A stretch of DNA of 64,000 nt from Escherichia coli (lineage in GTDB: Bacteria > Pseudomonadota > Gammaproteobacteria > Enterobacterales > Enterobacteriaceae), in NCBI RefSeq assembly GCF_048403405.1, contig NZ_CP183129.1, one strand, 5' to 3'. The translations under genes were made by a program, and so were the position numbers. The notes below the pieces were generated by a model that saw only the letters and a list, made by a program, of their open reading frames with translations, ran no database searches and had not been told where the DNA came from. Positions 4,812 to 25,307 of the stretch are shown here, one piece after another (within the stretch, counting starts at the first letter, position 1; every line of letters begins with the position of its first letter).

Positions 4812-7054
<2,243 letters not shown>

Positions 7055-7067
7055 TTCCGGTCTCCTG

Positions 7068-7823
7068 TCAGAACTTATAACCACGATGCAGCGCCACAAC
7101 CCCTGCCGTCAGATTGTAGTAGTCGACACTTTCGAATCCGGCATCTTGCATCATGGCTTTCAGGGTATCCTGATCGGGATGCATACGGATGGATTCTGCC
7201 AGATAACGGTAGCTGTCGGCGTCGTTCGCGACCAATGAGCCAATACGCGGCAGCACATGGAAGGAGTATGCATCATAGGCTTTGCTCAGCGGCTCGATAA
7301 TTGGCTTCGAGAACTCAAGCACCAGCAGGCGGCCGCCGGGTTTCAGCACGCGATACATTGAACGCAGTGCTTTATCTTTGTCGGTGACGTTACGCAGACC
7401 AAACGAAATGGTGATGCAATCAAAGGTGTTATCCGGGAACGGCAGCGCCTCAGCGTTCGCCTGAACATACTCAACGTTGCCAATCACACCGATATTACGC
7501 AGCTTCTCGCGTCCCATTTTGAGCATGGATTCATTGATATCAGCAAGGACCACTTTGCCAGTTTCTCCGACCAGGCGGGAGAATTTCGCTGTCAGGTCGC
7601 CGGTGCCACCAGCCAGATCCAGCACGGTCTGCCCGCGGCGTACGCCGCTGCAATCAATCGTGAATCGCTTCCACAAACGATGAATACCAAATGACATCAA
7701 ATCATTCATGACATCGTATTTTGATGCCACGGAATGGAAAACGTGGGCGACCATATCCGCTTTTTGTTCCTTCGCGACGGTCTGAAAACCAAAGTGCGTC
7801 GTTTCTTGTGACTTATCCACCAT
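7068..7823 (-). CDS. ubiE: Ubiquinone/menaquinone C-methyltransferase UbiE
   Basis: 251-aa SAM-dependent methyltransferase ([10 protein letters not shown] motif), first gene of the ubiE-ubiJ-ubiB cluster. Confidence 0.95.
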
Positions 7824-7917
7824 CTCAATGCCTGCTCATCAAAAAATTGTTCCAGAAGTGTAACAGATTGGGCGTCGATGCCCTAGATTTCTACCCGGCT
7901 TAACTACCCCCAATGGG

Positions 7918-9345: not shown

Positions 9346-9436
9346 AACGCCTCCTGACGCAACAACTTACCCGCACAAAATAGAATTGTGCTGTACAAAC
9401 GTCCAGTTGGAAAGGCATTTCCTGCGAGGCGCTACG

Positions 9437-9469
9437 CAAAAATACAAAAGGCCGAACGCGTCGGCCTTC
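9437..9469 (-). terminator. Rho-independent terminator downstream of udp
   Basis: On the minus strand: GGCCGACGCGTTCGGCC hairpin followed by TTTTGTATTTTT, about 20 nt after the udp stop. Confidence 0.6.
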
Positions 9470-9485
9470 AGACAGGAGAAGAGGA

Positions 9486-10247
9486 TTACAGCAGACGACG
9501 CGCCGCTTCCACCACGATTTTCACCGCTTGGCTTTCAGTTTGTTTCATCGTCTCAGCATTCGGGATCTCTTGCTGGGTGCGGTTAACGATAACACCCGCT
9601 ACCATACCGGCACGTAGGCCCTGACTTGCACACATGGTCAGCAGGGTTGCAGATTCCATTTCATAGTTCATTACGCCCATCGCCTGCCACTCTTCCATAG
9701 AACCTTTAAAGTGACGAACTACGCGACCAGAGTAAGTATCGTAACGTTCCTGACCTGGGTAGAAGGTATCAGAAGAAGCCGTCACGCCAACGTGAGTCGT
9801 CGCGCCGATGGATTTCGCAGCCTCAACCAGCGCAGTCGTACATTCGAAATCAGCGACAGCCGGGAATTCCAGCGGTGCGAAGTGCAGGCTCGCGCCATCC
9901 AGACGAACAGACGCCGTGGTAACCAGGACATCACCCACATTAATATGCGGCTGAATAGCGCCCGTTGTACCGATACGCAGGAAGGTGCGAATGCCCAGCT
10001 GTGCCAGCTCTTCAACAGCAATAGAGGTAGACGGGCCGCCGATACCGGTAGAGCAGACGATAACAGGTTTACCATCCAGCTCTGCACGCCAGGTGGTGAA
10101 TTCGCGGTGAGATGCCAGCTTAACCGGCTTATCCATCAGCGCGGCGATCTTTTCCACACGATCCGGGTCGCCAGGGACGATGGCAAGCGTAGCCCCTTGT
10201 AAATCGTTTTTAGTGAGGCCGAGATGAAAAACATCAGACTTGGACAT
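9486..10247 (-). CDS. udp: Uridine phosphorylase
   Basis: ORF open to 10253; canonical 253-aa Udp begins [19 protein letters not shown]. Confidence 0.95.
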
Positions 10248-10508
10248 ATACAACTCCTCTGTGAATCGGTTTAGTCAGAAGAAGCAAAAAGACACTTTAC
10301 CGAAGGGTTTAACATTTTTTCGTGATACTCATCACCATGACGCAAATGCGTTGCATAAATTTACCCACCAAAAGTGATGCAAATCACATAAATCACTCTT
10401 CATTCTGCAGGACTGCATAAAAGATGAGCCGATTCAGGCAATGTGATTTGTTGCATGCTGACTATAGTTAACATTGCGCAACATTTTTATAAGGGTACGG
10501 AGAATACC

Positions 10509-11318
10509 ATGGCAACAACACAACAATCTGGATTTGCACCTGCTGCATCGCCTCTAGCTTCGACCATCGTTCAGACCCTGGACGACGCGATTGTGGCGGG
10601 CTTCACCTCTATCCCTTCACAAGGGGATAACATGCCTGCTTACCATGCCAGACCAAAGCAAAGCGATGGCCCACTGCCAGTGGTCATTGTAGTGCAGGAA
10701 ATTTTTGGCGTGCATGAACATATTCGCGACATTTGTCGCCGTCTGGCGCTGGAGGGGTATCTGGCTATCGCACCTGAACTTTACTTCCGCGAAGGCGATC
10801 CGAATGATTTTGCCGATATCCCCACGTTGCTTAGCGGTCTGGTAGCAAAAGTGCCTGACTCGCAGGTGCTGGCCGATCTCGATCATGTCGCCAGTTGGGC
10901 TTCCCGCAACGGCGGCGATGTTCATCGTTTAATGATCACCGGATTCTGCTGGGGTGGACGTATCACCTGGCTGTATGCCGCGCATAATCCACAGCTAAAA
11001 GCCGCAGTGGCGTGGTACGGCAAACTGACGGGCGATAAGTCGCTGAATTCACCGAAACAACCTGTTGATATCGCAACCGATCTTAACGCGCCGGTTCTCG
11101 GCTTATATGGCGGCCAGGATAACAGCATTTCGCAAGAGAGCGTGGAAACGATGCGCCAGGCGCTGCGGGCAGCAAACGCGAAAGCAGAAATTATCGTGTA
11201 CCCGGATGCAGGGCATGCGTTCAACGCCGATTATCGTCCGAGCTATCATGCCGAGTCTGCGAAAGACGGCTGGCAGCGAATGTTGGAATGGTTTACACAG
11301 TATGGTGTTAAAAAGTAA
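10509..11318 (+). CDS. ysgA: Dienelactone hydrolase family protein (YsgA-like)
   Basis: ORF open from 10443; start placed at MATTQQSGFAPAAS, which is preceded by a GGAGA SD. Alpha/beta-hydrolase features (GFCWGG nucleophile elbow). Confidence 0.85.
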   Translation: MATTQQSGFAPAASPLASTIVQTLDDAIVAGFTSIPSQGDNMPAYHARPKQSDGPLPVVIVVQEIFGVHEHIRDICRRLALEGYLAIAPELYFREGDPNDFADIPTLLSGLVAKVPDSQVLADLDHVASWASRNGGDVHRLMITGFCWGGRITWLYAAHNPQLKAAVAWYGKLTGDKSLNSPKQPVDIATDLNAPVLGLYGGQDNSISQESVETMRQALRAANAKAEIIVYPDAGHAFNADYRPSYHAESAKDGWQRMLEWFTQYGVKK

Positions 11319-11574
11319 CGCCATAGTCGCTAAATCTGATGATTAAGCTCACACAATTTCAACGATTTTTTTAATCTCAAAACCATACAGCATCAAAAAA
11401 TTTGTTGCTGTATGCCACTCTTTGACTCCCTTCACATTCGTCATCACACCACCTGCTGAATGCAAAAATTTCGTTGCTGTGCGGCAAACTTTTTTCCTGT
11501 TTTGTGCCGCTTTTCTCCTGAATACTCGTTCTCAGAACAACTGGATCGTTTAAACATCAGACAGGAGATTTACC

Positions 11575-12243
11575 ATGACGCAATCCATTTTTCAGGCTCA
11601 ACCCTTTGAATTACCTTTTGATCCGCGCACAACTGCACTGGTCATGATCGACATGCAGCGTGACTTTGTCGAAGCAGGGGGCTTCGGTGAGGCACTGGGC
11701 AATGATGTTTCACTGGTACGCACGGCTATCGCACCATGTACAGAGGTGCTGGCAGCCGCACGTCAAAAAGGAATTATGGTTATTCATACTCGTGAAGGCC
11801 ATCGTGCAGACTTAAGCGACTGCCCGCCAGCCAAACTGACGCGCGGCGGAAAAACCTTTATTGGTGAACCAGGACCGATGGGACGCATTCTGGTCAGAGG
11901 TGAAGCAGGTCATGACATCATTCCTGAACTGTACCCGGTGGCAGGCGAACCGGTGATTGATAAGCCTGGCAAAGGCGCGTTTTATCAAACCGACTTACAT
12001 CTGATTTTGCAAAACCACGGTATCAAGACGCTGATAGTTTGTGGTGTAACAACCGAAGTTTGCGTAACCACCACCGTGCGCGAAGCAAATGATCGTGGCT
12101 ATGAATGCATTATCCCGGAAGATTGTGTCGGCTCCTATTTCCCGGAATTCCAGAAATACGCCCTCGAGATGATCAAAGCACAAGGTGCCATTTTCGGTTG
12201 GGTTACTGATTCCAAAGCCATTATTGCAGGTCTGGAAGGCTAA
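11575..12243 (+). CDS. Isochorismatase-family cysteine hydrolase (RutB / N-carbamoylsarcosine amidase / biuret hydrolase-like amidase)
   Basis: 222-aa ORF with the isochorismatase-fold signature: Asp in VMIDMQRDF near the N-terminus and catalytic Cys in CGVTTEVCV. AGGAGA SD upstream. First gene of accessory operon A. Confidence 0.8.
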   Translation: MTQSIFQAQPFELPFDPRTTALVMIDMQRDFVEAGGFGEALGNDVSLVRTAIAPCTEVLAAARQKGIMVIHTREGHRADLSDCPPAKLTRGGKTFIGEPGPMGRILVRGEAGHDIIPELYPVAGEPVIDKPGKGAFYQTDLHLILQNHGIKTLIVCGVTTEVCVTTTVREANDRGYECIIPEDCVGSYFPEFQKYALEMIKAQGAIFGWVTDSKAIIAGLEG

Positions 12244-12248
12244 CGCCG

Positions 12249-13109
12249 ATGGCACAGATTACGCTTTGCGCATCGTCGTTGGGATATCTTTTCCCGCAGA
12301 ATGAAACGCAAGATTTACGTCTGCATAGCGCTTTTAAACATGCGGTAAATCTGTATTCAGAAGCGGGAACATTCATCACTCTGTTGTGTGCGCAAACGTA
12401 TCTGAATCTCCCTGATGCTGCCAGAGTCTGGCTACCTGAATGTTGGGACTGGCGAAGAGAGATTGCCCATTCCGATCCCGTTCAGTTAACCCCAGGCTTA
12501 CTGCAGACACCTCGCTTTTGTGTGGCTCTCGATAACGCAACGCTCTGGCAGCCGTCATTTGTGGGAGGAAGGCTGACACTTGAGGCGTTCCCTTTGGTTT
12601 TCCAGCACTACCCAACGATGGCATCGCAACGGCTTTTATTTTGTCTGGAGCATAACGTTCAAAGCACATTGCACCTGCCGGATAGTCTCACGCACCAGGG
12701 ATTAGCGATTATGGAACATCCAGATGCGCTGGAACGCCAGGTGCCACAACTGATCGGCTTTGGTAAAGGCTTAACGCCCGATGGAGATGACTATTTGTTG
12801 GGCTATCTGGCAGCACTCTGGTTATGGCAACTCCCTGCACCACTTGCCGATCATCAATACCGGTTGCAGCAGGCAATTGATCAACATGCGCACAACACCA
12901 CGGATATCAGTCGTCATTATCTGGAGCGTGCGCTTCAGGGACATTTTTCAGAACCGATTTGCCAGTTACTCGCACAACTGGTTGGGAGCGCATCGGCAAT
13001 GACAATCGCATCCTGTGCAGAACAGGTCATGCAATTTGGCGCAACGTCAGGAGTAGATTGCCTTGCAGGAATGCTGCATGGCTTTCGAACCCTGAACACC
13101 ATGAATTGA
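12249..13109 (+). CDS. DUF2877-family protein (YlbF/YahE/AllH-like subunit of an oxamate-carbamoyltransferase-type complex)
   Basis: 286-aa ORF starting 6 nt after the previous stop; Gly-rich motifs GKGLTPDGDDYLLGY and GATSGVD resemble the DUF2877 family as I recall it. Position matches the yahE-yahF-yahG-yahI order. Confidence 0.65.
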   Translation: MAQITLCASSLGYLFPQNETQDLRLHSAFKHAVNLYSEAGTFITLLCAQTYLNLPDAARVWLPECWDWRREIAHSDPVQLTPGLLQTPRFCVALDNATLWQPSFVGGRLTLEAFPLVFQHYPTMASQRLLFCLEHNVQSTLHLPDSLTHQGLAIMEHPDALERQVPQLIGFGKGLTPDGDDYLLGYLAALWLWQLPAPLADHQYRLQQAIDQHAHNTTDISRHYLERALQGHFSEPICQLLAQLVGSASAMTIASCAEQVMQFGATSGVDCLAGMLHGFRTLNTMN

Positions 13110-13203
13110 TTTCAACCTTTTCTCCTGTAGCTCATTTATGGCGCTACACGGGGATGCTTTGCCCGAATTTTACTATCGGGCGGAATGAAACAGGCGTAAC
13201 AGC

Positions 13204-14763
13204 ATGAAAGTTAAATATAAAGTTTTCAGTAATCTTTATCAGGACTCAGTTTCTCTGATGCAGATTTCCGCGCAAATCAGCAAGTTGCCCGGTATTCAAC
13301 AGGCCTCGGTCGTCATGGGAACACCCAATAATCTCGAACAATTGCGCGATGCGGGTCTGGGTAACGAAATCAACGCCAGTCCCAATGATTTAGTGATTGC
13401 AGTCATGGGTGAAGAAGATATTTGCAATGAAGCACTGGCACTGGCCCAGCAACGTCTGACCAGCAAACCCGATGATGAAACGGATAGTGGCATTAAAACA
13501 CCGGAAAATGTCAGCCTGGACATGGCACTGGAAGCCGAACCCGAAGCCAACCTGGCACTCATTTCTGTACCGGGAGACTACGCCGCCGCCGAAGCAATTA
13601 AAGCGTTAAACCTCGGAATGAACGTGATGATGTTCAGCGATAACGTCAGTATCGCGCAGGAAAAATCCATCAAAATACTTGCCCGAGAACGTCAGCGCAT
13701 CGTAATGGGACCTGACTGTGGAACCGCCATTGTTAACGGCATTCCGTTAGGCTTCGCTAATGTGGTGAAACGCGGAGCAATTGGTGTTATTGGCGCGTCA
13801 GGCACCGGGCTACAGGAAGTGACTTGCCGAATCGACCAGCTCGGAGCGGGTATTTCTCAGGCGCTGGGAACAGGCGGGCATGATCTCAGTGAAGAGATTG
13901 GTGGAATATCGATGCTCTTCGCTTTAGATGCGCTGGCGCAAGACGATGAAACTCGCGTAATTGTGCTGATTTCAAAACCGCCTTCACCGATCGTTGCCCG
14001 GACTATTCTGGAGCGTGCCGAGGCTTGTGGAAAACCCGTGGTGGTGAATTTCCTCGGTGCGAATCCGCATGATCTGGCACGTCCCAATATCACTGCCGCC
14101 ACCACACTTGCCAGCGCCGCCGACATCGCTGTGGCGTTACTGAATGCTCAGCCACTTCCGGCTGTCGAGACCGAGATTTCCTGCGCCGATCTCACAATGT
14201 TACAAAACGCCTGTCAGCGCCTGCCAGCCCATCGCCAGGCGATACGCGGTGTTTTCGCCGGAGGAACCTTCTGCTACGAAGCGCAACTTATCTGCCAGCA
14301 AAAGGGATTCCGCGCCGCCTCCAATACGCCAGTTGCGAGTAATCGTACTCTGGCAAATATCTGGCAAAGCGAAGATCACACGCTGATCGATATGGGCGAC
14401 GATGATTTCACCCGTGGCAAACCGCATCCAATGATCGACCCGACTCTGCGCAATCAACGTCTGCTCAACGAACTCAACGACTCACACACTGCCGTCGTGT
14501 TATTCGACCTGGTACTTGGTTATGGCGCTTCCGCTACACCTGCCAGCGAATTACTGGACCAACTTTCACACATCGACATGAATAACGCACCGTTGCTGAT
14601 TGCGCACGTTTGCGGAACGGAAGCTGATCCGCAAATACGCAGTCAGCAGATAAGCGCACTACAAAATGCGGGCATCATCATTGCCAGCAGCAATGCACAG
14701 GCGGCGCTATGGGCCAGCGTCGTTGCGCAGACTCAGTTGCAGAAAAAGGGGCTAAACGCATGA
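13204..14763 (+). CDS. FdrA-like protein (CoA-binding / succinyl-CoA-synthetase-like fold; AllF/YahF family)
   Basis: 519-aa ORF sharing long motifs with E. coli FdrA as I recall it (NLALISVPGDYAA, MMFSDNVS, MGPDCGTAIVNGIPLGFANVV, GVIGASGTGLQEV, GRPHPMIDPTLRNQ). Confidence 0.8.
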   Translation: MKVKYKVFSNLYQDSVSLMQISAQISKLPGIQQASVVMGTPNNLEQLRDAGLGNEINASPNDLVIAVMGEEDICNEALALAQQRLTSKPDDETDSGIKTPENVSLDMALEAEPEANLALISVPGDYAAAEAIKALNLGMNVMMFSDNVSIAQEKSIKILARERQRIVMGPDCGTAIVNGIPLGFANVVKRGAIGVIGASGTGLQEVTCRIDQLGAGISQALGTGGHDLSEEIGGISMLFALDALAQDDETRVIVLISKPPSPIVARTILERAEACGKPVVVNFLGANPHDLARPNITAATTLASAADIAVALLNAQPLPAVETEISCADLTMLQNACQRLPAHRQAIRGVFAGGTFCYEAQLICQQKGFRAASNTPVASNRTLANIWQSEDHTLIDMGDDDFTRGKPHPMIDPTLRNQRLLNELNDSHTAVVLFDLVLGYGASATPASELLDQLSHIDMNNAPLLIAHVCGTEADPQIRSQQISALQNAGIIIASSNAQAALWASVVAQTQLQKKGLNA

Positions 14764-16184
14764 ATACCTTATTTAATCAGCCTTTGAAGGTTGTGAACGC
14801 GGGACTACACAGTTTTGCTGACAATATTCAACATGCCGGGGGAAGCGCAATTGCACTCAACTGGCAGCCACCAGCACAAGGCGATATTGACGCTGGATTG
14901 GATCTGGCATCGTTGCTACGTCATCCACTGGTAGAAAATGCCAACCAAATCGCCATGACACGTTATCTCGAAGCACAGCCCGTGCTGGTAGATGTCATGC
15001 TCGCTAAAGAGGCCATTCCAGCAATGGCTGAACAAAAACGTATTTTGCACTCTGGCCCGCCGATTGCCTGGGAAGAGATGTGTGGTCCGGTAAAAGGGGC
15101 GATTATTGGTGCCATGCTGTACGAAGGTTGGGCCACCAGCCAGCAAGACGCTGAAAACCAGATAAACGCAGGCGAAATCGACCTTGCCCCTTGTCATCAT
15201 TATCACGCGGTTGGCCCAATGGCTGGCATCATCAGCCCGTCGATGCCGTTATGGGTGGTAGAAAACAAAACCAACGGCCACCGTACTTTTAGCAATTTCA
15301 ATGAAGGTCTGGGTAAGGTTCTCCGTTTTGGCGCCAATAACGATGAAGTTCTCAATCGTCTGGCCTGGATGCGCGATGAACTGGCGCCGGCAATGAAAGC
15401 AGCAATCGCACAACACGGCGAGCTGGAACTCAAGCCATTAATGGCGCAGGCGCTGCATATGGGGGATGAAGTTCATAACCGCAATGCTGCCGCTACCGGT
15501 TTGCTGATTAAGCGCCTGCTCCCGGCATTGCTGGCCTGCTCTCTTCCACAGGAACATATCCAGCGCGTCGTGGCATTTATCACCGGTAACGATCACTTCT
15601 TCCTCAATCTGTCGATGGCTGCCTGTAAAGCAATGATGGATGCCGCCGCCAATGTACCGTTCAGTTCAATGGTTACGGTGATGGCGCGTAACGGGGTGAA
15701 TTTTGGTATTCGGCTTTCCGGTACTGGCGATCGCTGGTTCCAGGCTCCTGCCAATGCCGTTGAAGGTCTGTTCTTCCCCGGATTTGGCGTTGACGACGCT
15801 GCTGCTGACCTGGGTGATAGCGCAATTACTGAAACCGCAGGTGTGGGTGGCTTCGCGATGGCGTCGTCTCCGGCGATCGTCAAATTTGTGGGAGGCACCC
15901 CTGCCGATGCCACCAATAACAGCCGTCGGATGCAAGCCATCACCCTCGGCGGTAACCCCGCATTTACACTTCCAGCCCTCAATTTTGCCCCCACCGCAGC
16001 AGGGATTGATGCGCGTAAAGTGACCGATCGCGGCATTTTACCGGTCATCAATACGGGTATCGCCCACAAACAAGCGGGGGTCGGGCAAATTGGTGCCGGG
16101 ATCACCACTGCGCCGATGGCCTGTTTTGTCGCCGCTGTACGTGCACTGGCGGAGATCGTCGCAAAGGAGAACCATCATGGTTAA
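14760..16184 (+). CDS. DUF1116-family protein (YlbE/YahG/AllG-like)
   Basis: ORF open from 14709; I place the start at the ATG at 14760, which overlaps the FdrA-like stop (ATGA), giving MNTLFNQPLKVVNAG. Same gene order as yahF-yahG and fdrA-ylbE. Confidence 0.75.
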   Translation: MNTLFNQPLKVVNAGLHSFADNIQHAGGSAIALNWQPPAQGDIDAGLDLASLLRHPLVENANQIAMTRYLEAQPVLVDVMLAKEAIPAMAEQKRILHSGPPIAWEEMCGPVKGAIIGAMLYEGWATSQQDAENQINAGEIDLAPCHHYHAVGPMAGIISPSMPLWVVENKTNGHRTFSNFNEGLGKVLRFGANNDEVLNRLAWMRDELAPAMKAAIAQHGELELKPLMAQALHMGDEVHNRNAAATGLLIKRLLPALLACSLPQEHIQRVVAFITGNDHFFLNLSMAACKAMMDAAANVPFSSMVTVMARNGVNFGIRLSGTGDRWFQAPANAVEGLFFPGFGVDDAAADLGDSAITETAGVGGFAMASSPAIVKFVGGTPADATNNSRRMQAITLGGNPAFTLPALNFAPTAAGIDARKVTDRGILPVINTGIAHKQAGVGQIGAGITTAPMACFVAAVRALAEIVAKENHHG

Positions 16185-17133
16185 GCCACTGGCTGTTGTC
16201 GCGGTTGGCGGCAATGCGCTCATTCAGGACGAGCAACGCAATAGTATTCCCGATCAATATGTTGCAGTGATGGAAAGCGTGCAGCATATCGTTGATATGG
16301 TTGAAGCCGGATGGGACCTGGTGCTAACCCACGGTAATGGCCCGCAGGTGGGCTTTATTCTGCGCCGCTCTGAACTCGCCAGTAACGAAGTTTCTCCGGT
16401 TCCACTTGATTACGCCGTGGGTGATACACAAGGTGCAATTGGCTACATGTTCCAGAAAGCGCTGCATTACGAATTGGCTCGCCGTGGCATAAACAAACCG
16501 GTAATTGCCCTGGTGACACAAACGCGAGTCAGCCCACATGACGATGCTTTCGCCAACCCCAGTAAACCGATTGGCGCGTTTCTCGATGAAGCAACGGCCC
16601 AACAACGCCAACAACAACTCGGCTGGACGCTGATGGAGGACGCCGGGCGTGGTTGGCGGCGTACAGTTCCCTCTCCTGCACCACTGGAAATTATTGAGCA
16701 CGACACCATCGCTCACCTGGTGCGCCAGGGATATCTGGTTATTGCCTGCGGCGGCGGCGGTATTCCGGTGGTGCGAGACGGGCAACAACTGAAAGGTGTA
16801 GAAGCCGTGATCGATAAAGATCTGGCCTCCGCGCTGCTCGCCAGTCAGTTAGGCGCAGATCTGCTGGTGATCCCCACCGGTGTAGAAAAAGTGGCGATTA
16901 ACTTTGGTACACCACAACAACAGTGGCTCGACGCTATCAGCGTTGCCGAAGCGCAAACGCTGTTGCGGGAAGGTCAGTTTGGTGTCGGCAGTATGCAACC
17001 CAAAGTGGAAGCCATTGTTGATTTCATCAATGCCAGCCAGCAACAAGGCAAACAGGCCAGCGGCCTGATTACTTCACCGCAAACCATAAAAGCAGCCCTG
17101 GCGCATCAGAGCGGTACATGGATAACCCTTTAA
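16177..17133 (+). CDS. Carbamate kinase (ArcC/YahI/AllK family)
   Basis: ORF open from 16090; start placed at MVKPLAVVAVGGNALI (the classic carbamate kinase N-terminus) with an AAGGAGA SD 7 nt upstream; 8-bp overlap with the preceding gene. Confidence 0.85.
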   Translation: MVKPLAVVAVGGNALIQDEQRNSIPDQYVAVMESVQHIVDMVEAGWDLVLTHGNGPQVGFILRRSELASNEVSPVPLDYAVGDTQGAIGYMFQKALHYELARRGINKPVIALVTQTRVSPHDDAFANPSKPIGAFLDEATAQQRQQQLGWTLMEDAGRGWRRTVPSPAPLEIIEHDTIAHLVRQGYLVIACGGGGIPVVRDGQQLKGVEAVIDKDLASALLASQLGADLLVIPTGVEKVAINFGTPQQQWLDAISVAEAQTLLREGQFGVGSMQPKVEAIVDFINASQQQGKQASGLITSPQTIKAALAHQSGTWITL

Positions 17134-17149
17134 ATCTCTGGAGAACACA

Positions 17150-17539
17150 ATGACTACAACGCTTTTAGCCGTTAACGGAACGCTGATGCGCGGCCTGGAA
17201 CTCAACCCAAATATGAAAAAAGCGGGCGGTATTTTTGTCCGTGAAGACCGAACTGACGCCCATTACCGGTTGTGGAGTATTAACGATCGCCATCCGGGAA
17301 TGATTCGCGTGAATGAAGGAGGAACACACGTCGACGTAGAAATTTGGCAATTACCGCTGGCCAGTTTTGCCGCTCTGTTAATGAGCGAACCCGCTGGGCT
17401 GGCAATTGGCAAAATCAAACTTGCCGATGGTAGCGAAGTGCTGGGCGTACTGGCAGAAAACTGGCTGACCGAAGGCCAACGGGAAATTACAGAACTGGGC
17501 GGCTGGCGCAAATACACCGGGCATTTTCATACTGTGTAA
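17150..17539 (+). CDS. Small protein resembling the C-terminal domain of allophanate hydrolase (GGCT-like fold), tentative
   Basis: 129-aa ORF. The segment YRLWSINDRHPGMIRVNEGGTHVDVEIWQLPLASFAALLMSEPAGLAIGKIKLADGSEVLGVLAENW...LGGWRKY resembles the allophanate hydrolase C-terminal domain pattern as I remember it. Assignment from memory only. Confidence 0.5.
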   Translation: MTTTLLAVNGTLMRGLELNPNMKKAGGIFVREDRTDAHYRLWSINDRHPGMIRVNEGGTHVDVEIWQLPLASFAALLMSEPAGLAIGKIKLADGSEVLGVLAENWLTEGQREITELGGWRKYTGHFHTV

Positions 17540-17564
17540 CGCGCATTTATAAAGGGAACATACT

Positions 17565-18788
17565 ATGCGTAAAAAAGAAGAGAATCTGAATACGGCATCA
17601 GGATTGCGTATTGCCATGATTTTGCTGGGTATTGCCGTCACACCTGTGCTGTTGTCATCCTCAAGCCTCGGCAATCAACTTTCCAGCGGCAGTTTAATTA
17701 GCGTCGTATTGTTAGGCGGCGTCATTCTGACCTTACTTTCAGCCATCACCATTAGCGTGGGAGAAAAAGCCCGCCTGCCAACGTATGGCATTGTGAAATA
17801 TTCGTTTGGCGAAAAAGGGGCCATCGCCATTAACATTTTGATGGCGATAAGTCTGTTCGGCTGGATTGCCGTTACCGCCAATATGTTTGGTCATTCGGTA
17901 CATGACTTACTGGCTCAACATGGACTGGAAGTTCCACTGGCACTGTTAGTGGCGGCTGGCTGTGTCATTTTTGTCGCCTCTACGGCATTTGGCTTTGCCG
18001 TTCTGGGAAAAATTGCCCAGGTTGCCGTGCCGGTTATCGCGCTGGTGCTGTGTTACATCCTCTATGTGGCAACCCATACCGAAGTGGCAGTACCAGCGGC
18101 GATTGTGGAGATGAATACAGGTGTCGCCGTTTCCACCGTTGTTGGCACCATTATTGTGCTGGTTGCCACACTGCCTGATTTCGGTAGTTTTGTGCATAAC
18201 CGCAAACATGCACTGATTGCCGCAGGCGTGACGTTTCTGGTTGCCTACCCTCTGCTCTACTGGGCGGGTGCAACGCCGAGCGCCATTAGTGGTCAGGGAT
18301 CTTTACTGGGTGCGATGGCGGTATTCGGTGCGGTTCTGCCTGCGGCGCTGTTGTTGATTTTCGCCTGCGTCACCGGTAACGCGGGCAATATGTTCCAGGG
18401 CACGCTGGTGGTTTCCACACTGCTTACCCGCTTTCCCAAATGGCAGATTACCGTGGCGCTGGGTATCCTTTCCGCCATCGTAGGCAGTATGGATATTATG
18501 GCGTGGTTTATTCCGTTTCTGCTGTTCCTGGGTATCGCCACGCCACCCGTTGCCGGAATTTATATCGCTGACTTTTTCCTTTATCGCCGTAATGGCTATC
18601 AAGAGTCAGTGTTAGCCCAGGAGTCACAGATTAAAGTGCTGACATTCGCAGCATGGATCATAGGCGCAGCGGTTGGCTTTATGACCGTAAAAGGCTTATT
18701 CACCCTGACGACGATCCCTTCGGTAGACTCGATTCTGGTGGCATGTATCGCGTATGCGATTCTCAGTCGGGCAAGTCAACACCGCTAA
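17565..18788 (+). CDS. NCS1-family nucleobase/hydantoin-type permease (CodB-like)
   Basis: 407-aa polytopic membrane protein (about 12 hydrophobic segments) with length and organisation like the cytosine permease CodB. Confidence 0.75.
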   Translation: MRKKEENLNTASGLRIAMILLGIAVTPVLLSSSSLGNQLSSGSLISVVLLGGVILTLLSAITISVGEKARLPTYGIVKYSFGEKGAIAINILMAISLFGWIAVTANMFGHSVHDLLAQHGLEVPLALLVAAGCVIFVASTAFGFAVLGKIAQVAVPVIALVLCYILYVATHTEVAVPAAIVEMNTGVAVSTVVGTIIVLVATLPDFGSFVHNRKHALIAAGVTFLVAYPLLYWAGATPSAISGQGSLLGAMAVFGAVLPAALLLIFACVTGNAGNMFQGTLVVSTLLTRFPKWQITVALGILSAIVGSMDIMAWFIPFLLFLGIATPPVAGIYIADFFLYRRNGYQESVLAQESQIKVLTFAAWIIGAAVGFMTVKGLFTLTTIPSVDSILVACIAYAILSRASQHR

Positions 18789-18865
18789 TTCCTGGGTATA
18801 CTCAGGCAATGATTACGGCTGAATCTGGAGAGATTCAGCCACTTTACCACTGACCAGGGAGCCTT

Positions 18866-19771
18866 ATGTTCATCTCAGACGAAACGCTTCGTGTTATTCA
18901 TCTGGTCGCCAGACACCAGAGCATTACCATCGCAGCCGAGCAGTTAAATAAAGTCCCTTCCGCCATCAGTTACACCATCAAGAAAGCGGAAGAGAGCCTG
19001 GGCGTTGAACTGTTCATTCGTAAGGGACGCTATATTGAATTATCGCCAGCGGGAAGTTACTTCATCGAACATAGCAAAACTATTCTTGGCGACCTGGAAG
19101 CATTAAAGCGCAACACAGTGCTGATTCACGATGGTATTGAGCGTGAACTGACAATTGCGGTAAACAATATTATTCCTGGTAATTTGCTGGTGGCATTTAT
19201 TCGAGATTTTGAACGGCAATTCACATCAACAACACTGACGGTAGATCTTGAGGTATACAACGGCTGCTGGGATGCGCTGTACAGTAAGCGTGCTGATCTG
19301 GTCTACGGTGCTCCTCATGCAGTACCAAGTAGTGAAGGCATCATTAGCGAACCGGTCGGACAAATGGAATGGGATTTTGTCGTCAGCCCACTCCACCCAC
19401 TGGCAGCGAAGCGGCATCCATTAGAAAACAGTGAATTGCGTCATTATCCAGCGGTTTGTATCCGCGATACCTCCGTTAACTTCCCCCCGATGCAAGCCTG
19501 GTTGTTGGAAGGACAAAAACCCATTTTTGTTCCTGACTTCGCTACGGCAATCGCCTTAATAGAACAAAACGTCGGTATTGGTTATATTCCACATCATCTG
19601 GCATTGCCGTTATTGAACAGCGGTAAATTGCTTAAAAAGCCAATGCGCGAACATAAACACGCCACCAAGTTATTTCTTGCCGCTCGTTCCGATGGTATGG
19701 GCAAAGCCTGTCAGTGGTGCATAGAATATTTAAGAAACCCGCAATTAATGACACGATTTGTATTTAATTGA
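18866..19771 (+). CDS. LysR-family transcriptional regulator
   Basis: 301-aa ORF with N-terminal HTH (ITIAAEQLNKVPSAISYTIKKAEESLGVELFIRKGR) and C-terminal LysR substrate-binding domain. Confidence 0.85.
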   Translation: MFISDETLRVIHLVARHQSITIAAEQLNKVPSAISYTIKKAEESLGVELFIRKGRYIELSPAGSYFIEHSKTILGDLEALKRNTVLIHDGIERELTIAVNNIIPGNLLVAFIRDFERQFTSTTLTVDLEVYNGCWDALYSKRADLVYGAPHAVPSSEGIISEPVGQMEWDFVVSPLHPLAAKRHPLENSELRHYPAVCIRDTSVNFPPMQAWLLEGQKPIFVPDFATAIALIEQNVGIGYIPHHLALPLLNSGKLLKKPMREHKHATKLFLAARSDGMGKACQWCIEYLRNPQLMTRFVFN

Positions 19772-19899
19772 CAATACAATGATAAAAATATAAGTCTTGC
19801 TTTAATTAGAGCGCCCGTTTAAATTATTTTTGTGCAGTTGACGTAACTCATGAAAATTAACCGGTCTGTTAATCATTACGTTCACTGCACACCTTCATT

Positions 19900-19940
19900 T
19901 TTTCACACCTATCCACGCCTGAAAACTATGTTATAATCAG
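19900..19940 (+). promoter_or_regulatory. Putative sigma70 promoter with extended -10 (TGTTATAAT) for the RpiR-family gene
   Basis: TGTTATAAT at about 19929-19937 in an AT-rich intergenic region, about 30 nt upstream of the ATG at 19971. No convincing -35. Confidence 0.3.
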
Positions 19941-19970
19941 CACTTTCTGTCAGAATGAAATTTACTAATT

Positions 19971-20816
19971 ATGAATAACATAACCGTAAAAAGTCTGATT
20001 CAAAGCAATTACCCTACACTGCATCAGGCGGAAAAAAAGGTCGCCGACTATATTCTTAGCCACGCACATGAAGTCGTGAACTATAGTGTCACTGAACTAT
20101 CAGAAAAAAGCCATGCCAGTGAAGCGACTATCGTGCGCACCTGTAAGAAATTAGGTTATCAGGGTTATTACCATTTAAAAATTGCATTAGCAAAAGAAGT
20201 CATTAATCCTGACAATAGCTATCCTGATAATACCGATTTTACCGATATAACGTCGCTGGCCACATTTTTATTAAAAAAACAGGCCGAAGATTTAATACAA
20301 TCAACGCAATTTTTTAATGCCGAAGTGCTTGAGTCCATTCTCAAACTACTTGCTAATTGCGATACTATTTTCTTTTTTGCTGCCGGAAATTCAAACCCTC
20401 TGGCCGTTTATGGTGCTTATAAATTCAGCCAACTCGGATTAAAAACCGTTGTTCACGTCAGCCCGGAAATGCAAATTAATGCGGCATATTCTATGGGGAA
20501 ACGCGACCTGGCGATTGGTATTTCTAACTCTGGCAGCACCAACTTAATGGTCGATATCTTTAAAGTGGTGAAAGAGCGCGGTGCCAAATCCGTTTGTATC
20601 ACTAACTATATTAAATCTCCGTTATCAAAACTCTCCACCCATCAACTCAATACCGCGGTCAGCGATAAAATCTTCTTTGAAGCCTTCGACTCCACTCGCG
20701 TTCCGGCAATGGGCGTTATTGATATGCTGGTGCTGTTGTTTATGTATAAAAACAAGGCGCATTACGAGAAATACCGCACCCGTGAAGAGTTTCTCGGCTC
20801 CCGTTTCAAGGGGTAA
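19971..20816 (+). CDS. RpiR/MurR-family transcriptional regulator (HTH + SIS domain)
   Basis: 281-aa ORF with N-terminal HTH_6-type region (SVTELSEKSHASEATIVRTCKKLGYQGYYHLK) and C-terminal SIS domain. Confidence 0.85.
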   Translation: MNNITVKSLIQSNYPTLHQAEKKVADYILSHAHEVVNYSVTELSEKSHASEATIVRTCKKLGYQGYYHLKIALAKEVINPDNSYPDNTDFTDITSLATFLLKKQAEDLIQSTQFFNAEVLESILKLLANCDTIFFFAAGNSNPLAVYGAYKFSQLGLKTVVHVSPEMQINAAYSMGKRDLAIGISNSGSTNLMVDIFKVVKERGAKSVCITNYIKSPLSKLSTHQLNTAVSDKIFFEAFDSTRVPAMGVIDMLVLLFMYKNKAHYEKYRTREEFLGSRFKG

Positions 20817-20840
20817 AAGGTCATCCTTTCACCCCTTGTG
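20810..20840. terminator. Hairpin between the convergent RpiR-family and transketolase genes (possible bidirectional terminator)
   Basis: GGGGTAAAAGG-TCAT-CCTTTCACCCC inverted repeat overlapping the rpiR-like stop codon, followed by TTGTG; 30-bp gap between convergent stops. Confidence 0.4.
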
Positions 20841-20845
20841 CAGGT

Positions 20846-22843
20846 TTAGCTATTCAGTAGCTCACGCGCCTGCGCCAGGACATTTTCCGGCGTAAAACCA
20901 AAGTGTTTGAACAACACATTCGCCGGAGCAGACTCACCAAAGCTCGTCATCCCAATGACTTTACCATCCAGACCGACGTAGCGTTCCCAGAATCCGGCGA
21001 TGCTGGCTTCTACCGCCAGACGTTTGCGTACAGCTTTTGGCAATACCGATTCTTTGTACGCCGCATCCTGATTATCGAAACGCTCGGTACACGGCATGGA
21101 AACTACGCGAACTTTACGCCCTTCTTCCGTTAACGCTTTTGCGGCGCTGACCACTAACTCAATCTCTGAACCCGCAGAAATGAGGATCATCTCAGGCTGA
21201 CCGTCACAATCACTCAGTACATAACCACCACGCGCAATCTCTGCCAACTGTGCAGCGGTGCGCGGCTGTTGCGCCAGCGGTTGGCGCGTTAATACCAACG
21301 ACGTTGGGCCATCTTTGCGCTCAATCGCCTGTTGCCAGGCCACCGCCACTTCCACCTGATCGCAACCGCGCCAGGTTTCCATATTCGGCGTCAGACGCAG
21401 CGACGCCAGTTGCTCAACGGGCTGATGTGTCGGGCCGTCTTCGCCCAGGCCGATGGTATCGTGGGTATAAACAAACACCGAGCGGATCTTCATCAGCGCC
21501 GCCATGCGCAGTGCATTACGCGCATATTCCATAAACATCAGGAAAGTACCGCCGTAAGGGATAAACCCACCATGCAGCGCAAGACCGTTCATGATGGCCG
21601 ACATACCAAATTCACGCACGCCATAGGAGATGTAATTCCCCGCCGGATTTTCCCCGGTGAAATCAACCGATTTCTGATGGCGAGTCAGGTTAGAGGGCGA
21701 CAAGTCCGCCGAGCCGCCCATCAGTTCCGGCAGCATATCAGCGAAGTGATTGAGGCATTTCTGGCTGACCTGACGGGTTGCCAGCGCCGCCGGATGGGAT
21801 TGCAGATCGTGCACATATTTCTGCATATTCTCGGCCCAGCCAGCAGGCAAATCACCCTTCATGCGACGAGTAAACTCCGCCGCCAGTTCCGGCCACTGCT
21901 TCGCGTAGTCAGCAAACAGTGCATCCCATTCCTGTTGAACCTGCGCGCCTTTCTCGGTCGCATCCCATTCGGCATAAATTTCACCAGGAATTTCGAAAGG
22001 GGCATACGGCCATTGCAGACGTTCACGCACCAGCGCCACTTCATCTGCACCCAGCGCCGAGCCGTGGCAATCGTGGCTGTTGGCTTTATTTGGTGAACCA
22101 AAACCGATAATCGTTTTGCAGCACAGCAGACTGGGCTTATCCGTGACGCTTTTCGCTTCACGCACCGCAGCATCTACCGCTTCTGGATCGTGACCATCAA
22201 CGCCTTCAATGACATGCCAGCCGTAGGCACGAAAACGGGCAGCCGTATCTTCAGCGAACCAGCCTTCTACGTGACCATCGATCGAAATACCGTTATCGTC
22301 CCAGATAGCAATCAGATTGCCGAGCTTCAGCGTTCCTGCAAGACCACAGGCCTCGTGGGAGATCCCTTCCATCAGGCAGCCATCACCCAAAAATAGCCAT
22401 GTGTGATGATCAACAATATTAAAGCCCGGTTTGTTAAATTCTGCCGCCAGCGCCTTCTCCGCAATCGCCATCCCCACCGCATTAGCTACGCCCTGCCCCA
22501 ACGGGCCGGTGGTGGTTTCAACACCCGGCGTATAACCATATTCTGGATGACCCGGCGTGCGGGAGTGGAGCTGACGAAAGTCGCGAATATCATCCATCGA
22601 CAGGTCGTAGCCTGTAAGATGCAGCAAAGCGTAAATCAACATGGAGCCGTGACCGTTCGACTGAACATAGCGGTCGCGGTTAAACCACTGCGGATTTTTT
22701 GGGTTATGACGCAGGTGACGACGCCAGACCACTTCGGCAATATCCGCCATCCCCATCGGCGCGCCCGGATGACCGGAGTTCGCTTTCTGGATCGCATCAA
22801 CACTTAACATTCGGATGGCATTAGCCAGTAATTGTGAATTCAT
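20846..22843 (-). CDS. tkt: Transketolase paralog (third tkt copy; possibly the ExPEC-associated 'tkt1')
   Basis: 665-aa ORF collinear with E. coli TktA/TktB over its whole length ([81 protein letters not shown]) but clearly divergent from both, and located in an accessory island. Confidence 0.9.
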
Positions 22844-22893
22844 ACTTCAGCTCTCTCTGTCTGGCGGGCTGAAACCAGCCCGCTAATCTCGAA

Positions 22894-24402
22894 TTAGTTA
22901 GCACAGGCCACTGTCATTTCTGTCGGGCGCGGTCTGCTCATTACGGTTTTAATTTCGTCGCGCAGGATTTGCGATTTGCCGCCAAATATCACCTGTACAC
23001 CGCCATCACCCAGTTTCACTAACCCCGCAGCCCCCAACTCCTTCAGCCGTTTTTCATTCACTTTCTTATCGTCTACCAGCGCCAGCCTCAGGCGTGTTGC
23101 GCAGGCATCCACATCTTCGATATTGTCGAAACCACCTACTGCTTCGATGATTTGGTATGGACGTTCTTCGCGCGTTAATGTGGTTGCAACGGCAATCTCT
23201 TCATCCTCACGTCCCGGTGTTTTCAGATTCAACTTGCGGATCAGTACCCGAAATACGGTGTAGTAAATCGCTGCATAGCCCGCGCCTGCCAGGAACACCA
23301 GATACCACGGCGTGCGGTTTGGCATAACGCCATTCAGTACGAAATCAATAAGACCGCCAGCAAAAGGATGACCAATGTGCACATTCAGGATGTTCATCAG
23401 CACAAATGAAGTGGCATATAAGAAGATGTGAATGATGTAGAGAACCGGAGCTGCAAACAAAAATGCATATTCCAGCGGCTCCGTAATCCCGGTAACAAAT
23501 GTGGTCAGCGCACCGGAGAGTAAAAGGCCTTTAATCAGCGCCTTACGTTCCGGTTTTGCTTCCTGATACATCGCCAACGCGGCGGCAGGTAACGCAAACA
23601 TCATGATCGGGAAACGACCTGTCATAAACAGCCCCGCCGTCAACGGAACACCGTCGCGCAATTGGGCAAAGAACACCGGAATATCGCCCGTCACCAGTTG
23701 CCCGGATTTGGTCATGTAGTCGCCAAAGTTGTAATAAAACGGCACGTTCCAGATATGATGCAGGCCAAAAGGAATCAGCGAACGTTCGCCAACGGCGTAA
23801 ATAAAGGCCGCGAAGTTCGCGTTATGCCCACTGGTCACCAGCGTTGAAAGCGACGCCAGACCTTTTTGTACCGGTATCCACAGCCACGGCAATAAATAGC
23901 CGACAATAATTGCCGCCACCGCCGTAATAATCGGTACAAAGCGTTTTCCACCGAAGAAACCAAGAAACTGAGGCAATTCAATATTGTGGAAGCGGGTATA
24001 GAGCAGATAAACAAAGATGGCGACAATCAAACCGCCAAACACTCCCGTTTGTAACGTCGGTACCCCGAGGATCATCGCATAGTCACCGTTACTGGCTGCA
24101 ACGGACTCCGCGGTAATGCCAAGTTGCGTTCCCATCGTGGCATTCATGATCATGTAACTGATAATCGCTGAAAGTGATGAAGAACCATCACCTGTCAGGC
24201 CAATCACAATACCGACACAAAACAGCAAAGGAAGGTTGGCGAAAATCAGGCCGCCGCAATTCGCCAGCAGCTCAATGTTAAATGAAATCCCGATGGCTAA
24301 AATCAAACCCGCCGCCGGAAGAATGGCGATTGGTAACATCAGAGCAGAAGAAAATTTCTGCAACTTCTTGAAGTTAAACAAGGATGTTATTTTTTTGCTC
24401 AT
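22894..24402 (-). CDS. PTS glucose-family EIICB component (EIIC domain followed by EIIB domain)
   Basis: 502-aa ORF: polytopic EIIC region, then a C-terminal EIIB domain with the phosphocysteine motif DACATRLRL. No EIIA domain. Confidence 0.85.
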   Translation of the reverse strand: MSKKITSLFNFKKLQKFSSALMLPIAILPAAGLILAIGISFNIELLANCGGLIFANLPLLFCVGIVIGLTGDGSSSLSAIISYMIMNATMGTQLGITAESVAASNGDYAMILGVPTLQTGVFGGLIVAIFVYLLYTRFHNIELPQFLGFFGGKRFVPIITAVAAIIVGYLLPWLWIPVQKGLASLSTLVTSGHNANFAAFIYAVGERSLIPFGLHHIWNVPFYYNFGDYMTKSGQLVTGDIPVFFAQLRDGVPLTAGLFMTGRFPIMMFALPAAALAMYQEAKPERKALIKGLLLSGALTTFVTGITEPLEYAFLFAAPVLYIIHIFLYATSFVLMNILNVHIGHPFAGGLIDFVLNGVMPNRTPWYLVFLAGAGYAAIYYTVFRVLIRKLNLKTPGREDEEIAVATTLTREERPYQIIEAVGGFDNIEDVDACATRLRLALVDDKKVNEKRLKELGAAGLVKLGDGGVQVIFGGKSQILRDEIKTVMSRPRPTEMTVACAN

Positions 24403-24443
24403 TTTTATTCTCCTGTAGGGTATCGAGCAAATAACGGCGACGA

Positions 24444-25001
24444 CTATTCCAGATTGGCGTGGCGCTTAAACAGTTCACTTTCCGGCGCACCACTTTCAGC
24501 AGCCATCTTCATCACTAATGCATCGGCAATCACCAGCAAAGCTTGCTCATACAACGACGCCATCGGCTGTGCCGAGCGGAAAACAGAATCTTTTTGATTT
24601 TTGGAAGGGGCATTGATTTGCACGATGACGTCGACAAACTCGGTGATAGTGGCGTGTCGATTCGTGGTTAACACCGCCACAGCGCCGCCAAGCTGACGTG
24701 CTTTTTTCGCCAGTGCCACCAGTTGTGCTGTCTCACCGGAAGCGGAAGAAACGATAAACAGATCGCCAGGCCCAAAGTTCGGCGTAATGGTTTCCGTCAG
24801 AAAGTAAACCTCTTTTCCCATATGCATCAGGCGCATGGTGAAGGCTTTCATGGAAAAGCCGGCGCGTCCCAGGCCATAGCAGAAAACGCGCTGGCTTTGC
24901 TGAATAGCGTCGATCAATTTGGTGCAGTCATCCTCACGGATAGAGTCCTTAACGAAGGTTAATTCATTGATGATCTCAGTGATGTACAGCTTTGCGTCCA
25001 T
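24444..25001 (-). CDS. SIS-domain sugar-phosphate isomerase resembling 6-phospho-3-hexuloisomerase (PHI/HxlB-like)
   Basis: ORF open to 25013; start placed at the second Met (MDAKLYITEII), which has a GAGGTG SD about 6 nt upstream. About 185 aa with FTMRLMHMG, SASGET and C-terminal HANLE, as in PHI/HxlB as I recall it. Confidence 0.7.
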   Translation of the reverse strand: MDAKLYITEIINELTFVKDSIREDDCTKLIDAIQQSQRVFCYGLGRAGFSMKAFTMRLMHMGKEVYFLTETITPNFGPGDLFIVSSASGETAQLVALAKKARQLGGAVAVLTTNRHATITEFVDVIVQINAPSKNQKDSVFRSAQPMASLYEQALLVIADALVMKMAAESGAPESELFKRHANLE

Positions 25002-25307
25002 TTCACACCTCATGAAATAATTTTCTCAAACACAAAATCTCATGAAATTTTATTTCATTCCAATGCATCAGTATGAAATGTGAAGCTAGTCACAAGAAAG
25101 ATCATAGGTTGATATGTTTTTCATTAAAAAACATATAGATATCAAGTAATTTTTAATATGTGATGGAGAGGCAGATAGAAAAAATGGCGGAAATGACGAA
25201 ATTTATTTCATGAGAAGGGAATAAAGAAGATTTTCTTAAACAGGGTATGAACTGATATCTGGAATGGTTTACGCAGTATGCTGGGAAGACGTCGCTGTAA
25301 TGAGAAA

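Follow-up and report, generated by a model that had tools for sequence, protein, structure and literature searches.

An accessory sugar operon of the tkt1 genomic island in Escherichia coli: its products, its control region and its relatives across phyla

Which sugar would be served by an accessory operon in which an isomerase of the 6-phospho-3-hexuloisomerase (PHI) family, a transporter of the phosphotransferase system (PTS) and an additional transketolase stand together, and does such an operon belong to a known pathway? The question is raised by a 64,000-nucleotide stretch of Escherichia coli DNA (contig NZ_CP183129.1, referred to below as the window), chromosomal DNA located near metE and metR, 5.5 kb of which are 100% identical in human isolates, e.g., TUM14771 and MS 69-1. 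An original prediction, made from the sequence alone, described the three genes and implied that the locus was new. The locus is instead the sugar half of the tkt1 genomic island published by Li et al. (2012; PMC3349570), 14–16 kb between metE and ysgA, and the present work is in this respect the rediscovery of an island that is annotated in RefSeq and linked to extraintestinal pathogenic E. coli (ExPEC). With a confidence somewhat better than even, the locus is read here as an uptake operon for a glucose-like sugar, controlled by CRP and by a regulator of the RpiR family, that forms the sugar module of the ExPEC tkt1 island.

The identity with the island rests on position, gene content and primers. 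The tkt1 island of avian pathogenic E. coli (APEC) O1 and other ExPEC occupies the same metE-ysgA position as the locus described here (Li et al., 2012, BMC Microbiol 12:51; PMC3349570), and the gene list in Table 2 of that article matches the RefSeq annotation of this locus gene for gene. The order common to both comprises a sugar isomerase, a PTS IIBC protein, tkt1, two regulators, a permease, a carbamate kinase, yahG/F/E-like genes and an isochorismatase-family gene. Additionally, the published primers tkt1-F (21539–21558) and tkt1-R (21056–21075) find exact matches in the transketolase open reading frame (ORF).

Products of the operon and its control region

Three ORFs on the minus strand had been proposed to form the operon, and all three were found with the families assigned to them. 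The first (24444–25001) encodes an hxlB-like SIS protein of 185 aa that belongs to the PHI family (TIGR03127; hxlB in RefSeq), the second (22894–24402) a glucose-family PTS EIICB protein of 502 aa that lacks an EIIA domain (TIGR02002; RefSeq ptsG), and the third (20846–22843), tkt1, a full-length transketolase of 665 aa (TIGR00232; RefSeq tkt), each of them above the curated NCBIfam cut-off. A gene for a MurR/RpiR-family regulator of 281 aa (rpiR, 19971–20816, plus strand; MurR/RpiR both by NCBIfam and in RefSeq) is convergent with tkt1. The operon starts, as had been described, at an AT-rich side (GC 0.39 in 24750–25249); its three genes are co-directional, the gaps between them measure 41 and 50 nt, and a consensus scan of these gaps, of the low information value discussed below, gave no convincing terminator. 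The SIS ORF could begin at 25013, the start chosen in RefSeq being the ATG at 25001 with a GAGG about 7 nt upstream. Between tkt1 and rpiR, folding revealed a hairpin with a 14-bp stem (20807–20838) that overlaps the rpiR stop codon; with an energy of -29 kcal/mol (z = -7.2 relative to shuffled sequences), it is probably a bidirectional terminator or a stabiliser. The initial observation was thus confirmed, since the ORFs are where they had been placed, the families score above their cut-offs and the window is free of a hexulose-6-phosphate synthase (HPS).

The isomerase was assigned to the PHI clade by profile scores: it reached 205.2 bits on the HxlB/PHI model TIGR03127 (NCBIfam cut-off 160) compared with 25.6 bits on GmhA, 20.3 on KpsF, 19.8 on MurQ and 18.8 on GlmS. 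These scores decide for PHI between the PHI and GmhA placements that the original prediction had left to be checked, and they rule out GmhA, DiaA, KpsF or MurQ as the identity of the protein. Its top sequence match in the PDB is YckF/HxlB of Bacillus subtilis (E = 2.8e-39), and its closest solved relatives (YckF/HxlB, an HPS-PHI fusion, AF1796 and MJ1247) are all PHI or PHI-like proteins. The protein retains 43 positions that are common to the PHI groups with and without a linked HPS, among them R46, MRxMH (56–60), ETxTP (70–74), SGxT (88–91), K134, QPMASLxEQ (145–153) and H181, and six positions (L44, A47, G106, A131, S143 and V163) split the HPS-linked PHIs from the HPS-less ones. The glycine loop reads GLGRAG in the HPS-less clade of E. 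coli type versus GAGRSG in the HPS-linked group, and a neighbor-joining tree, built without bootstrap support, gathers the HPS-linked PHIs in one clade with the E. coli-type proteins outside it. No homologue of HPS (hxlA) was detected in the 64-kb window (tblastn, E ≤ 1e-3), nor is any HPS present in the RefSeq annotation of 37.5 kb around the locus; because this partner is absent, the locus is not a canonical ribulose monophosphate (RuMP) module, as the original prediction had held. By sequence, the SIS protein is a member of PHI lineages without an adjacent HPS partner, an assignment that is new here.

Tkt1 scores 1009.3 bits on TIGR00232 (cut-off 682.25) and is 68.7% identical to E. coli TktA. 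All 22 of the residues examined for contacts with thiamine diphosphate (ThDP), the metal and the substrate or its phosphate are identical in the two proteins; they are those which we take to be the key positions in TktA numbering, namely H26, H66, H100, G114, L116, D155, G156, D183, N185, I187, H261, R358, D381, S385, E411, F434, F437, Y440, H461, D469, H473 and R520. None of them being lost, a transketolase that is catalytically dead through loss of such residues, which the original prediction had named as an outcome that would speak against it, is ruled out, and Tkt1 is, judged from its sequence, a normal transketolase.

EIICB passes the glucose-family model TIGR02002 (PTS-II-BC-glcB) with 608.6 bits against a cut-off of 591.8, and its EIIB domain passes TIGR00826 with 75.7 bits against 45.75. 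Its translation contains both the GITE motif (...TGITEPLEY...) and the phospho-cysteine motif CATRLR (...DACATRLRL...), and in its Klebsiella orthologue the domains PF02378 and PF00367 were found. On the E. coli PtsG equivalog NF008301 it reaches 442.9 bits, below the cut-off of 647, and it falls below the cut-offs of the NagE and MalX models too. Orthologues at 62–90% identity (Klebsiella, Serratia, Sebaldella and Rhodococcus, with 70% for Sebaldella and 62% for Rhodococcus) have a PHI-like SIS gene adjacent to them; no SIS gene lies close to the two homologues examined at 57–58% identity, of which one is in a typical GlcT-EIIA-EIICB-HPr (ptsG) operon and the other among housekeeping genes. 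An equivalence with PtsG, and with it glucose as the predicted substrate, was not supported, given the score below the PtsG cut-off and the membership in a PHI-linked group at an identity of at least 62%. No EIIA domain was found in the protein or in the operon; actinobacterial EIICB orthologues have a fused EIIA and are accompanied by HPr and EI genes.

The regulator gives full-length matches to HexR, AlsR and MurR-type models, and as all of these remain below the equivalog cut-offs it was assigned to the MurR/RpiR family and not to a named member. Its Klebsiella and Serratia orthologues combine PF01418 and PF01380 (an N-terminal HTH_6 domain and a C-terminal SIS sensor), and the linkage of the operon with an RpiR gene is kept in the Klebsiella, Serratia, Enterococcus and Sebaldella orthologues. 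The SIS sensor domain of the regulator matches the PHI model at 43 bits, and because of this resemblance it may bind the phosphosugar of the isomerase.

Upstream of the operon lies an AT-rich promoter/regulatory region of 257 bp (25002–25258, minus strand; GC 0.39), which can be aligned with the corresponding regions of Klebsiella and Serratia. A perfect CRP consensus, TGTGA-N6-TCACA (TGTGAAGCTAGTCACA, 25079–25094), is located in it about 85 bp upstream of the start codon; this exact consensus occurs once in the 64 kb versus 0.09 times expected by chance, and its TGTGA half-site is invariant upstream of two Klebsiella orthologues and one Serratia orthologue. A perfect 17-bp palindrome, ATGAAATAAAATTTCAT (25042–25058), overlaps a possible -10 element (TAAAAT) and is a candidate repressor operator; when up to three mismatches are allowed the window contains two sites of this pattern, the exact one being that described here, with 0.29 expected. 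The right half of the palindrome is a ATTTCATGA box, a second box is positioned directly upstream of the ribosome-binding site (25010–25018, minus strand), and a third, inverted copy lies at 25205–25213. The window holds four copies of ATTTCATGA in all (0.81 expected), three of them within 25010–25213, and both the palindrome half and the 25010–25018 box are conserved upstream of the Klebsiella and Serratia genes. The boxes and the palindrome may be bound by the RpiR protein, and the pattern of motifs, reported here for the first time, is the one that would be expected of a catabolite-activated, repressor-controlled sugar operon. Two elements were additionally read by eye upstream of rpiR: an extended -10, TGTTATAAT (19929–19937), and after it AATGAAATTTAC (19954–19965), similar to one half of the ATGAAAT...ATTTCAT palindrome of the operon, which may reflect autoregulation.

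Relatives in other bacteria

Relatives were sought by look-ups of single homologues and by a peptide-pattern scan of one genome per species, the neighbours being tabulated by tblastn. The scan used two peptide patterns and gave 126 relatives with a bias toward Bacillota, and the representative genome of E. coli in it lacks the island; owing to the two patterns, to this bias and to a neighbor-joining tree without bootstrap, the picture of the clades is that of a limited sample. Of the 76 PHI homologues whose identity to the E. coli protein is 43% or less, most of them from Bacillus and Paenibacillus, 75 have hxlA 0.6 kb upstream, none is linked to a PTS or RpiR gene, and a transketolase gene accompanies a single one, 7 kb away. 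The homologues with at least 44% identity have no adjacent HPS, Olsenella alone harboring an HxlA-like gene (202.5 bits versus a cut-off of 200) at a distance of 4.5 kb. They usually lie within 3 kb of a transketolase gene, full-length or split, an association seen in E. coli, Klebsiella, Rhodococcus, Enterococcus, Sebaldella, Enterocloster, Lachnospiraceae, Olsenella and Secundilactobacillus, and they are also accompanied by a PTS, or by an ABC transporter and a ROK kinase, and by a regulator of RpiR, GntR or DeoR type. This neighbourhood of PHI, transketolase and PTS or ROK kinase spans four phyla and is described here for the first time.

Another characteristic of these clusters is a trio of genes that recurs beside the core and encodes a GFO_IDH_MocA dehydrogenase, an AP_endonuc_2 TIM-barrel protein and an alpha/beta hydrolase; it was seen in Klebsiella, Serratia, Glutamicibacter, Rhodococcus, Enterococcus and one Lachnospiraceae genome. 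The clusters of Klebsiella, Serratia ficaria, Rhodococcus koreensis, Glutamicibacter and Enterococcus thailandicus share with E. coli the PHI-like SIS protein and the PTS (the EIICB of Klebsiella, Serratia and Rhodococcus being 62–90% identical to that of E. coli), often together with a transketolase and a RpiR or GntR regulator. They differ from E. coli, which has none of these, by the dehydrogenase, TIM-barrel and hydrolase genes and in some cases by a phosphoketolase or a glycerate kinase, the latter of two unrelated types: the Klebsiella and Serratia clusters add a MOFRL-type glycerate kinase and an SgrR-like regulator, the Enterococcus cluster a GlxK-type glycerate kinase and the phosphoketolase. 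A sensitive blastn search of 5426 E. coli genomes found no second operon of the Klebsiella type, and since this second gene set is absent from all of them, E. coli carries a reduced core. A four-gene core like that of E. coli is present in Sebaldella, on a contig that ends at the regulator gene, and Bifidobacterium samirii possesses the SIS, RpiR and PTS genes only. No close solved or named relative was found for the accessory dehydrogenase, TIM-barrel protein or hydrolase from which a function could be transferred: the dehydrogenase matches IolG and DgpA only via its N-terminal Rossmann part, the TIM-barrel protein is a distant match of MJ1311 (E = 1e-5), and the hydrolase matches generic alpha/beta hydrolases.

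Three further records touch on the spread of these genes. A metagenome contig carries a transketolase and a PHI-like SIS gene (71% and 64% identical to E. coli, respectively) with a LysR regulator, and as the pair directly adjoins Trb/VirB-type conjugative transfer genes and a transposase fragment, it also travels on a mobile element. The record of Chryseobacterium sp. 18061 contains Klebsiella-like orthologues (SIS 80%, EIICB 90% and Tkt 87% identical to E. coli), and its label is probably a contamination or a mis-assignment. Finally, a metagenome-assembled genome of Lachnospiraceae contains, at 162–14888, a cluster of 15 genes on a single strand, with two PHI-like SIS genes, a ROK kinase, a ribose/allose-type ABC transporter, a D-psicose-3-epimerase-like protein (320 bits, cut-off 300), tagatose-kinase-like and GatZ/AgaZ-like proteins, a split transketolase and the trio of dehydrogenase, TIM-barrel protein and hydrolase. 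It looks like a rare-sugar locus and could help identify the substrate of the PHI clade.

Proposed function and competing explanations

Known systems share parts of this arrangement. In the hxlAB RuMP operon of the B. subtilis type, HxlB belongs to the same family as the SIS protein described here and has the HPS HxlA as its partner, whereas the present operon has no HPS, its partners being a PTS and a transketolase and its regulator being of RpiR type; the B. subtilis hxlAB system has an HxlR-type regulator. The E. coli system for N-acetylmuramic acid, murR-murQP, combines an RpiR regulator with a glucose-superfamily PTS EIIBC and with an enzyme of the SIS type whose substrate is a sugar 6-phosphate, and its logic is shared here: a PTS-derived sugar 6-phosphate passes through a SIS enzyme to a central metabolite, and the SIS sensor of an RpiR repressor responds to the phosphosugar. 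However, the MurQ etherase represents another SIS clade (the 19.8 bits given above), the EIICB described here is of the Glc subfamily as opposed to the MurP/Bgl subfamily, and a transketolase is added. A third transketolase is also known from Salmonella Typhimurium, where TktC (STM2340/2341) is split and is encoded next to the genes of an ascorbate-family PTS, with no PHI-like gene. TktC and Tkt1 are alike in that each is the third transketolase of an enteric pathogen and is encoded in an accessory locus for a PTS sugar, but Tkt1 is full-length and 69% identical to TktA, unlike the split TktC.

In the proposed mechanism, cAMP-CRP would activate the promoter, and RpiR would occupy the ATTTCATGA boxes and be freed once its SIS domain binds a phosphosugar of the pathway. 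EIICB, by analogy with its family, would import a glucose-like hexose and phosphorylate it at O6, with the general EI and HPr and EIIA-Glc (Crr) as phosphoryl donors; Crr is invoked because the operon lacks an EIIA, and we infer from the way other EIICB proteins of E. coli operate that the chromosomal Crr serves this one. The PHI-clade SIS enzyme would move the carbonyl via an ene-diol to give fructose 6-phosphate or another 2-ketose phosphate. Tkt1, whose intact active-site residues suggest an ordinary transketolase, would feed the product into the pentose phosphate pathway or rebalance it. The route from uptake through isomerisation to transketolase put forward in the original prediction appears plausible. 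On chemical grounds, allose, 1,5-anhydroglucitol, 3-ketoglucose, glucosylglycerate, heptoses and glucosamine were weighed as the substrate, and none of them was supported or excluded. The linked dehydrogenase/TIM-barrel pair may, speculatively, point to C3-oxidised sugars or small glucosides.

A wider proposal, which we put forward tentatively and regard as possible but rather doubtful, is that the operon is the E. coli member of a multi-phylum uncharacterised pathway. In this pathway an HPS-free PHI-clade isomerase would act on a phosphosugar, perhaps a C3-oxidised (3-keto/3-ulose) or rare hexose 6-phosphate, whose delivery would fall to a dedicated PTS derived from the glucose type (or to an ABC transporter with a ROK kinase), and the exit would be by transketolase; in the full version the trio would make the intermediate from, e.g., a small glucoside, the recurrent glycerate kinase hinting at a glycerate conjugate, and B2/ExPEC strains would have kept a scavenging core for a sugar of the host or its microbiota.

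Several points weigh against an uptake operon of this kind. We know of no free-sugar source from which a PTS could obtain 3-hexulose 6-phosphate, the canonical PHI substrate. No sigma-70 promoter was detected upstream of the operon in a simple consensus scan, the scan for promoters and terminators being uninformative in that it returned fewer promoter matches than shuffled sequence. E. coli lacks the trio, and its version may therefore be incomplete. Of the complementation and carbon-source experiments suggested with the original prediction, part can be found in the literature, and the results were negative: the K-12 tktA mutant BJ502 was rescued on L-arabinose by pBAD-tktA and not by pBAD-tkt1, and deletion of tkt1 left carbon-source phenotypes unchanged in Biolog PM1-2 plates (Li et al., 2012; PMC3349570). 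The complementation result is not decisive, because the available part of the article describes neither an expression control nor an enzyme assay and because APEC O1 without tktA still grew on arabinose (PMC3349570). As for the plates, tktA and tktB were present in all avian E. coli discussed by Li et al. (PMC3349570), and TktA and TktB would mask the loss of tkt1, which was the only gene deleted, the transporter and the isomerase being left in place.

The same experiments are central to the explanation given by Li et al. (2012), namely that Tkt1 has a role in peptide-nitrogen metabolism and, in the form weighed here, is not a working transketolase in vivo. The use of Pro-Ala and Phe-Ala as nitrogen sources was lost in the tkt1 mutant and restored by pBAD-tkt1 (PMC3349570), which, with the failure of pBAD-tkt1 in BJ502, speaks for it. 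We nevertheless judge it quite improbable: the 22 key residues are those of TktA in a protein of 68.7% identity, we know of no proposal that would connect a ThDP ketol transferase chemically with the use of dipeptides, the gap in the described controls noted above bears on it equally, and the growth of APEC O1 without tktA on arabinose fits an active Tkt1 or TktB. Moreover, the other half of the island, with genes for the catabolism of nitrogen compounds, is a more natural home for nitrogen phenotypes. Still less credible is a partial RuMP or formaldehyde module, in which the SIS protein would be a true PHI, the HPS would come from elsewhere (e.g., a promiscuous SgbH or UlaD) and Tkt1 would regenerate pentose phosphates. 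The score above the PHI cut-off, the 43 family-conserved positions and the HxlA-like gene of the related Olsenella cluster agree with such a module; yet HPS is absent from the window, the SIS protein falls outside the clade of HPS-adjacent PHIs, a PTS neighbour and a CRP site are a signature of sugar catabolism and not of formaldehyde stress, and the regulator is of RpiR and not of HxlR type.

The operon could also be the remnant of a larger Klebsiella- or Serratia-type cluster that lost the operon for the dehydrogenase, the TIM-barrel protein, the hydrolase and the glycerate kinase, no longer able to process the original substrate and persisting as neutral baggage or as extra capacity for glucose-type transport and transketolase activity, an explanation we hold to be rather unlikely. 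It draws on the Klebsiella and Serratia orthologues (72–90% identical), which are flanked by the GFO, AP_endonuc_2, hydrolase, MOFRL kinase and SgrR-like genes, none of this flanking DNA being found in the 5426 E. coli genomes by sensitive blastn; on an AT-rich stretch (GC 0.35–0.39) before the E. coli rpiR, where Klebsiella has its second operon; and on the tkt1 deletion that left no carbon-source phenotype (PMC3349570). On the other hand, the four-gene module is intact in 1134 of 5426 complete E. coli genomes (21%), every carrier showing a coverage of at least 80% and an identity of about 99% or more, and it is annotated as four coding sequences in 24 of 25 sampled carrier records. The promoter motifs are conserved, minimal modules without the trio also occur in B. 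samirii and possibly in Sebaldella, given the contig end at its regulator gene, and in chickens a signature-tagged transposon mutant of tkt1 lost out in competition (Li et al., 2012; PMC3349570).

The island in this lineage and its significance

Relative to K-12 MG1655, in which metE and ysgA are 39 bp apart (blastn), the whole metE-ysgA island extends over 13.9 kb (11317–25258), compared with the 16 kb reported for APEC O1 (PMC3349570), and the sugar module occupies its metE-proximal third (19772–25258). The 5-kb islet of six ORFs between udp and rmuC in APEC O1 (PMC3349570) is absent from this lineage, since udp (about 9486–10247) and rmuC (about 7918–9345) are only some 140 nt apart in the matching annotated strain. 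At the metE-proximal edge of the island, a relic of about 42 nt of the K-12-type ysgA 3' end was found (25259–25300), and the 3' end of the real ysgA at the other edge (11283–11316) is a variant one. The two make up an imperfect direct repeat on either side of the island, with the core ...CATACTG(C/T)GTAAACCATTCCA..., whereas Li et al. reported no flanking repeats (PMC3349570), and this arrangement suggests that the island was acquired through recombination within ysgA.

The other two-thirds of the island (11575–19771, plus strand) encode a cysteine hydrolase of the isochorismatase family, DUF2877, FdrA and DUF1116 proteins, a carbamate kinase, a small allophanate-hydrolase-related protein, an NCS1 (cytosine-permease-like) transporter and a PunR/AllS-like LysR regulator; three of these genes are listed as yahE, yahF and yahG by Li et al. 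(PMC3349570). This part looks like a catabolic unit for nitrogen compounds that is unrelated to the sugar operon, and the reported nitrogen-source phenotype may have more to do with this unit than with tkt1. Elsewhere in the window (about 37558–38894), two small accessory genes, for a YPO3983-family protein and a DUF943 protein, are located between rarD and corA.

Compared with Klebsiella, the genes of the sugar module show dN values of 0.07–0.14 with synonymous sites saturated for three of the four genes, which indicates long-term purifying selection; dN/dS could be obtained for EIICB alone (0.029). In a synteny survey of 2010, the four genes of the module, listed as CFT073 c4756-c4759 ("PTS system, glucose specific"), were scored as present only in the columns of uropathogenic E. 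coli (UPEC) (PMC2831201), and tkt1 was later shown to be concentrated in phylogroup B2, with 85–99% of B2 isolates positive among APEC, UPEC and neonatal meningitis E. coli (PMC3349570). The island belongs to the accessory loci with the closest ties to ExPEC of phylogroup B2. The original prediction knew of no defined substrate, and fourteen years after the description of the island the substrate is still unnamed in the literature found, through a genome paper of 2026 that cites only Li et al. (2012) for the island (PMC12928451). Nor was a characterised homologous pathway found, the literature retrieved being Li et al. (2012), the survey of 2010 and this genome paper.

What remains of interest is the substrate itself, together with a broader set of linked genes that seems to be uncharacterised and that the E. 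coli operon represents in reduced form. Naming the sugar would give a function to a group of uncharacterised enzymes found side by side again and again in Klebsiella, Serratia, Rhodococcus, Enterococcus and gut anaerobes, and a trait that bears on the fitness of a major pathogen of humans and poultry would be explained; if B2/ExPEC strains do keep a scavenging core, this would account for the reported in vivo attenuation of tkt1 mutants.

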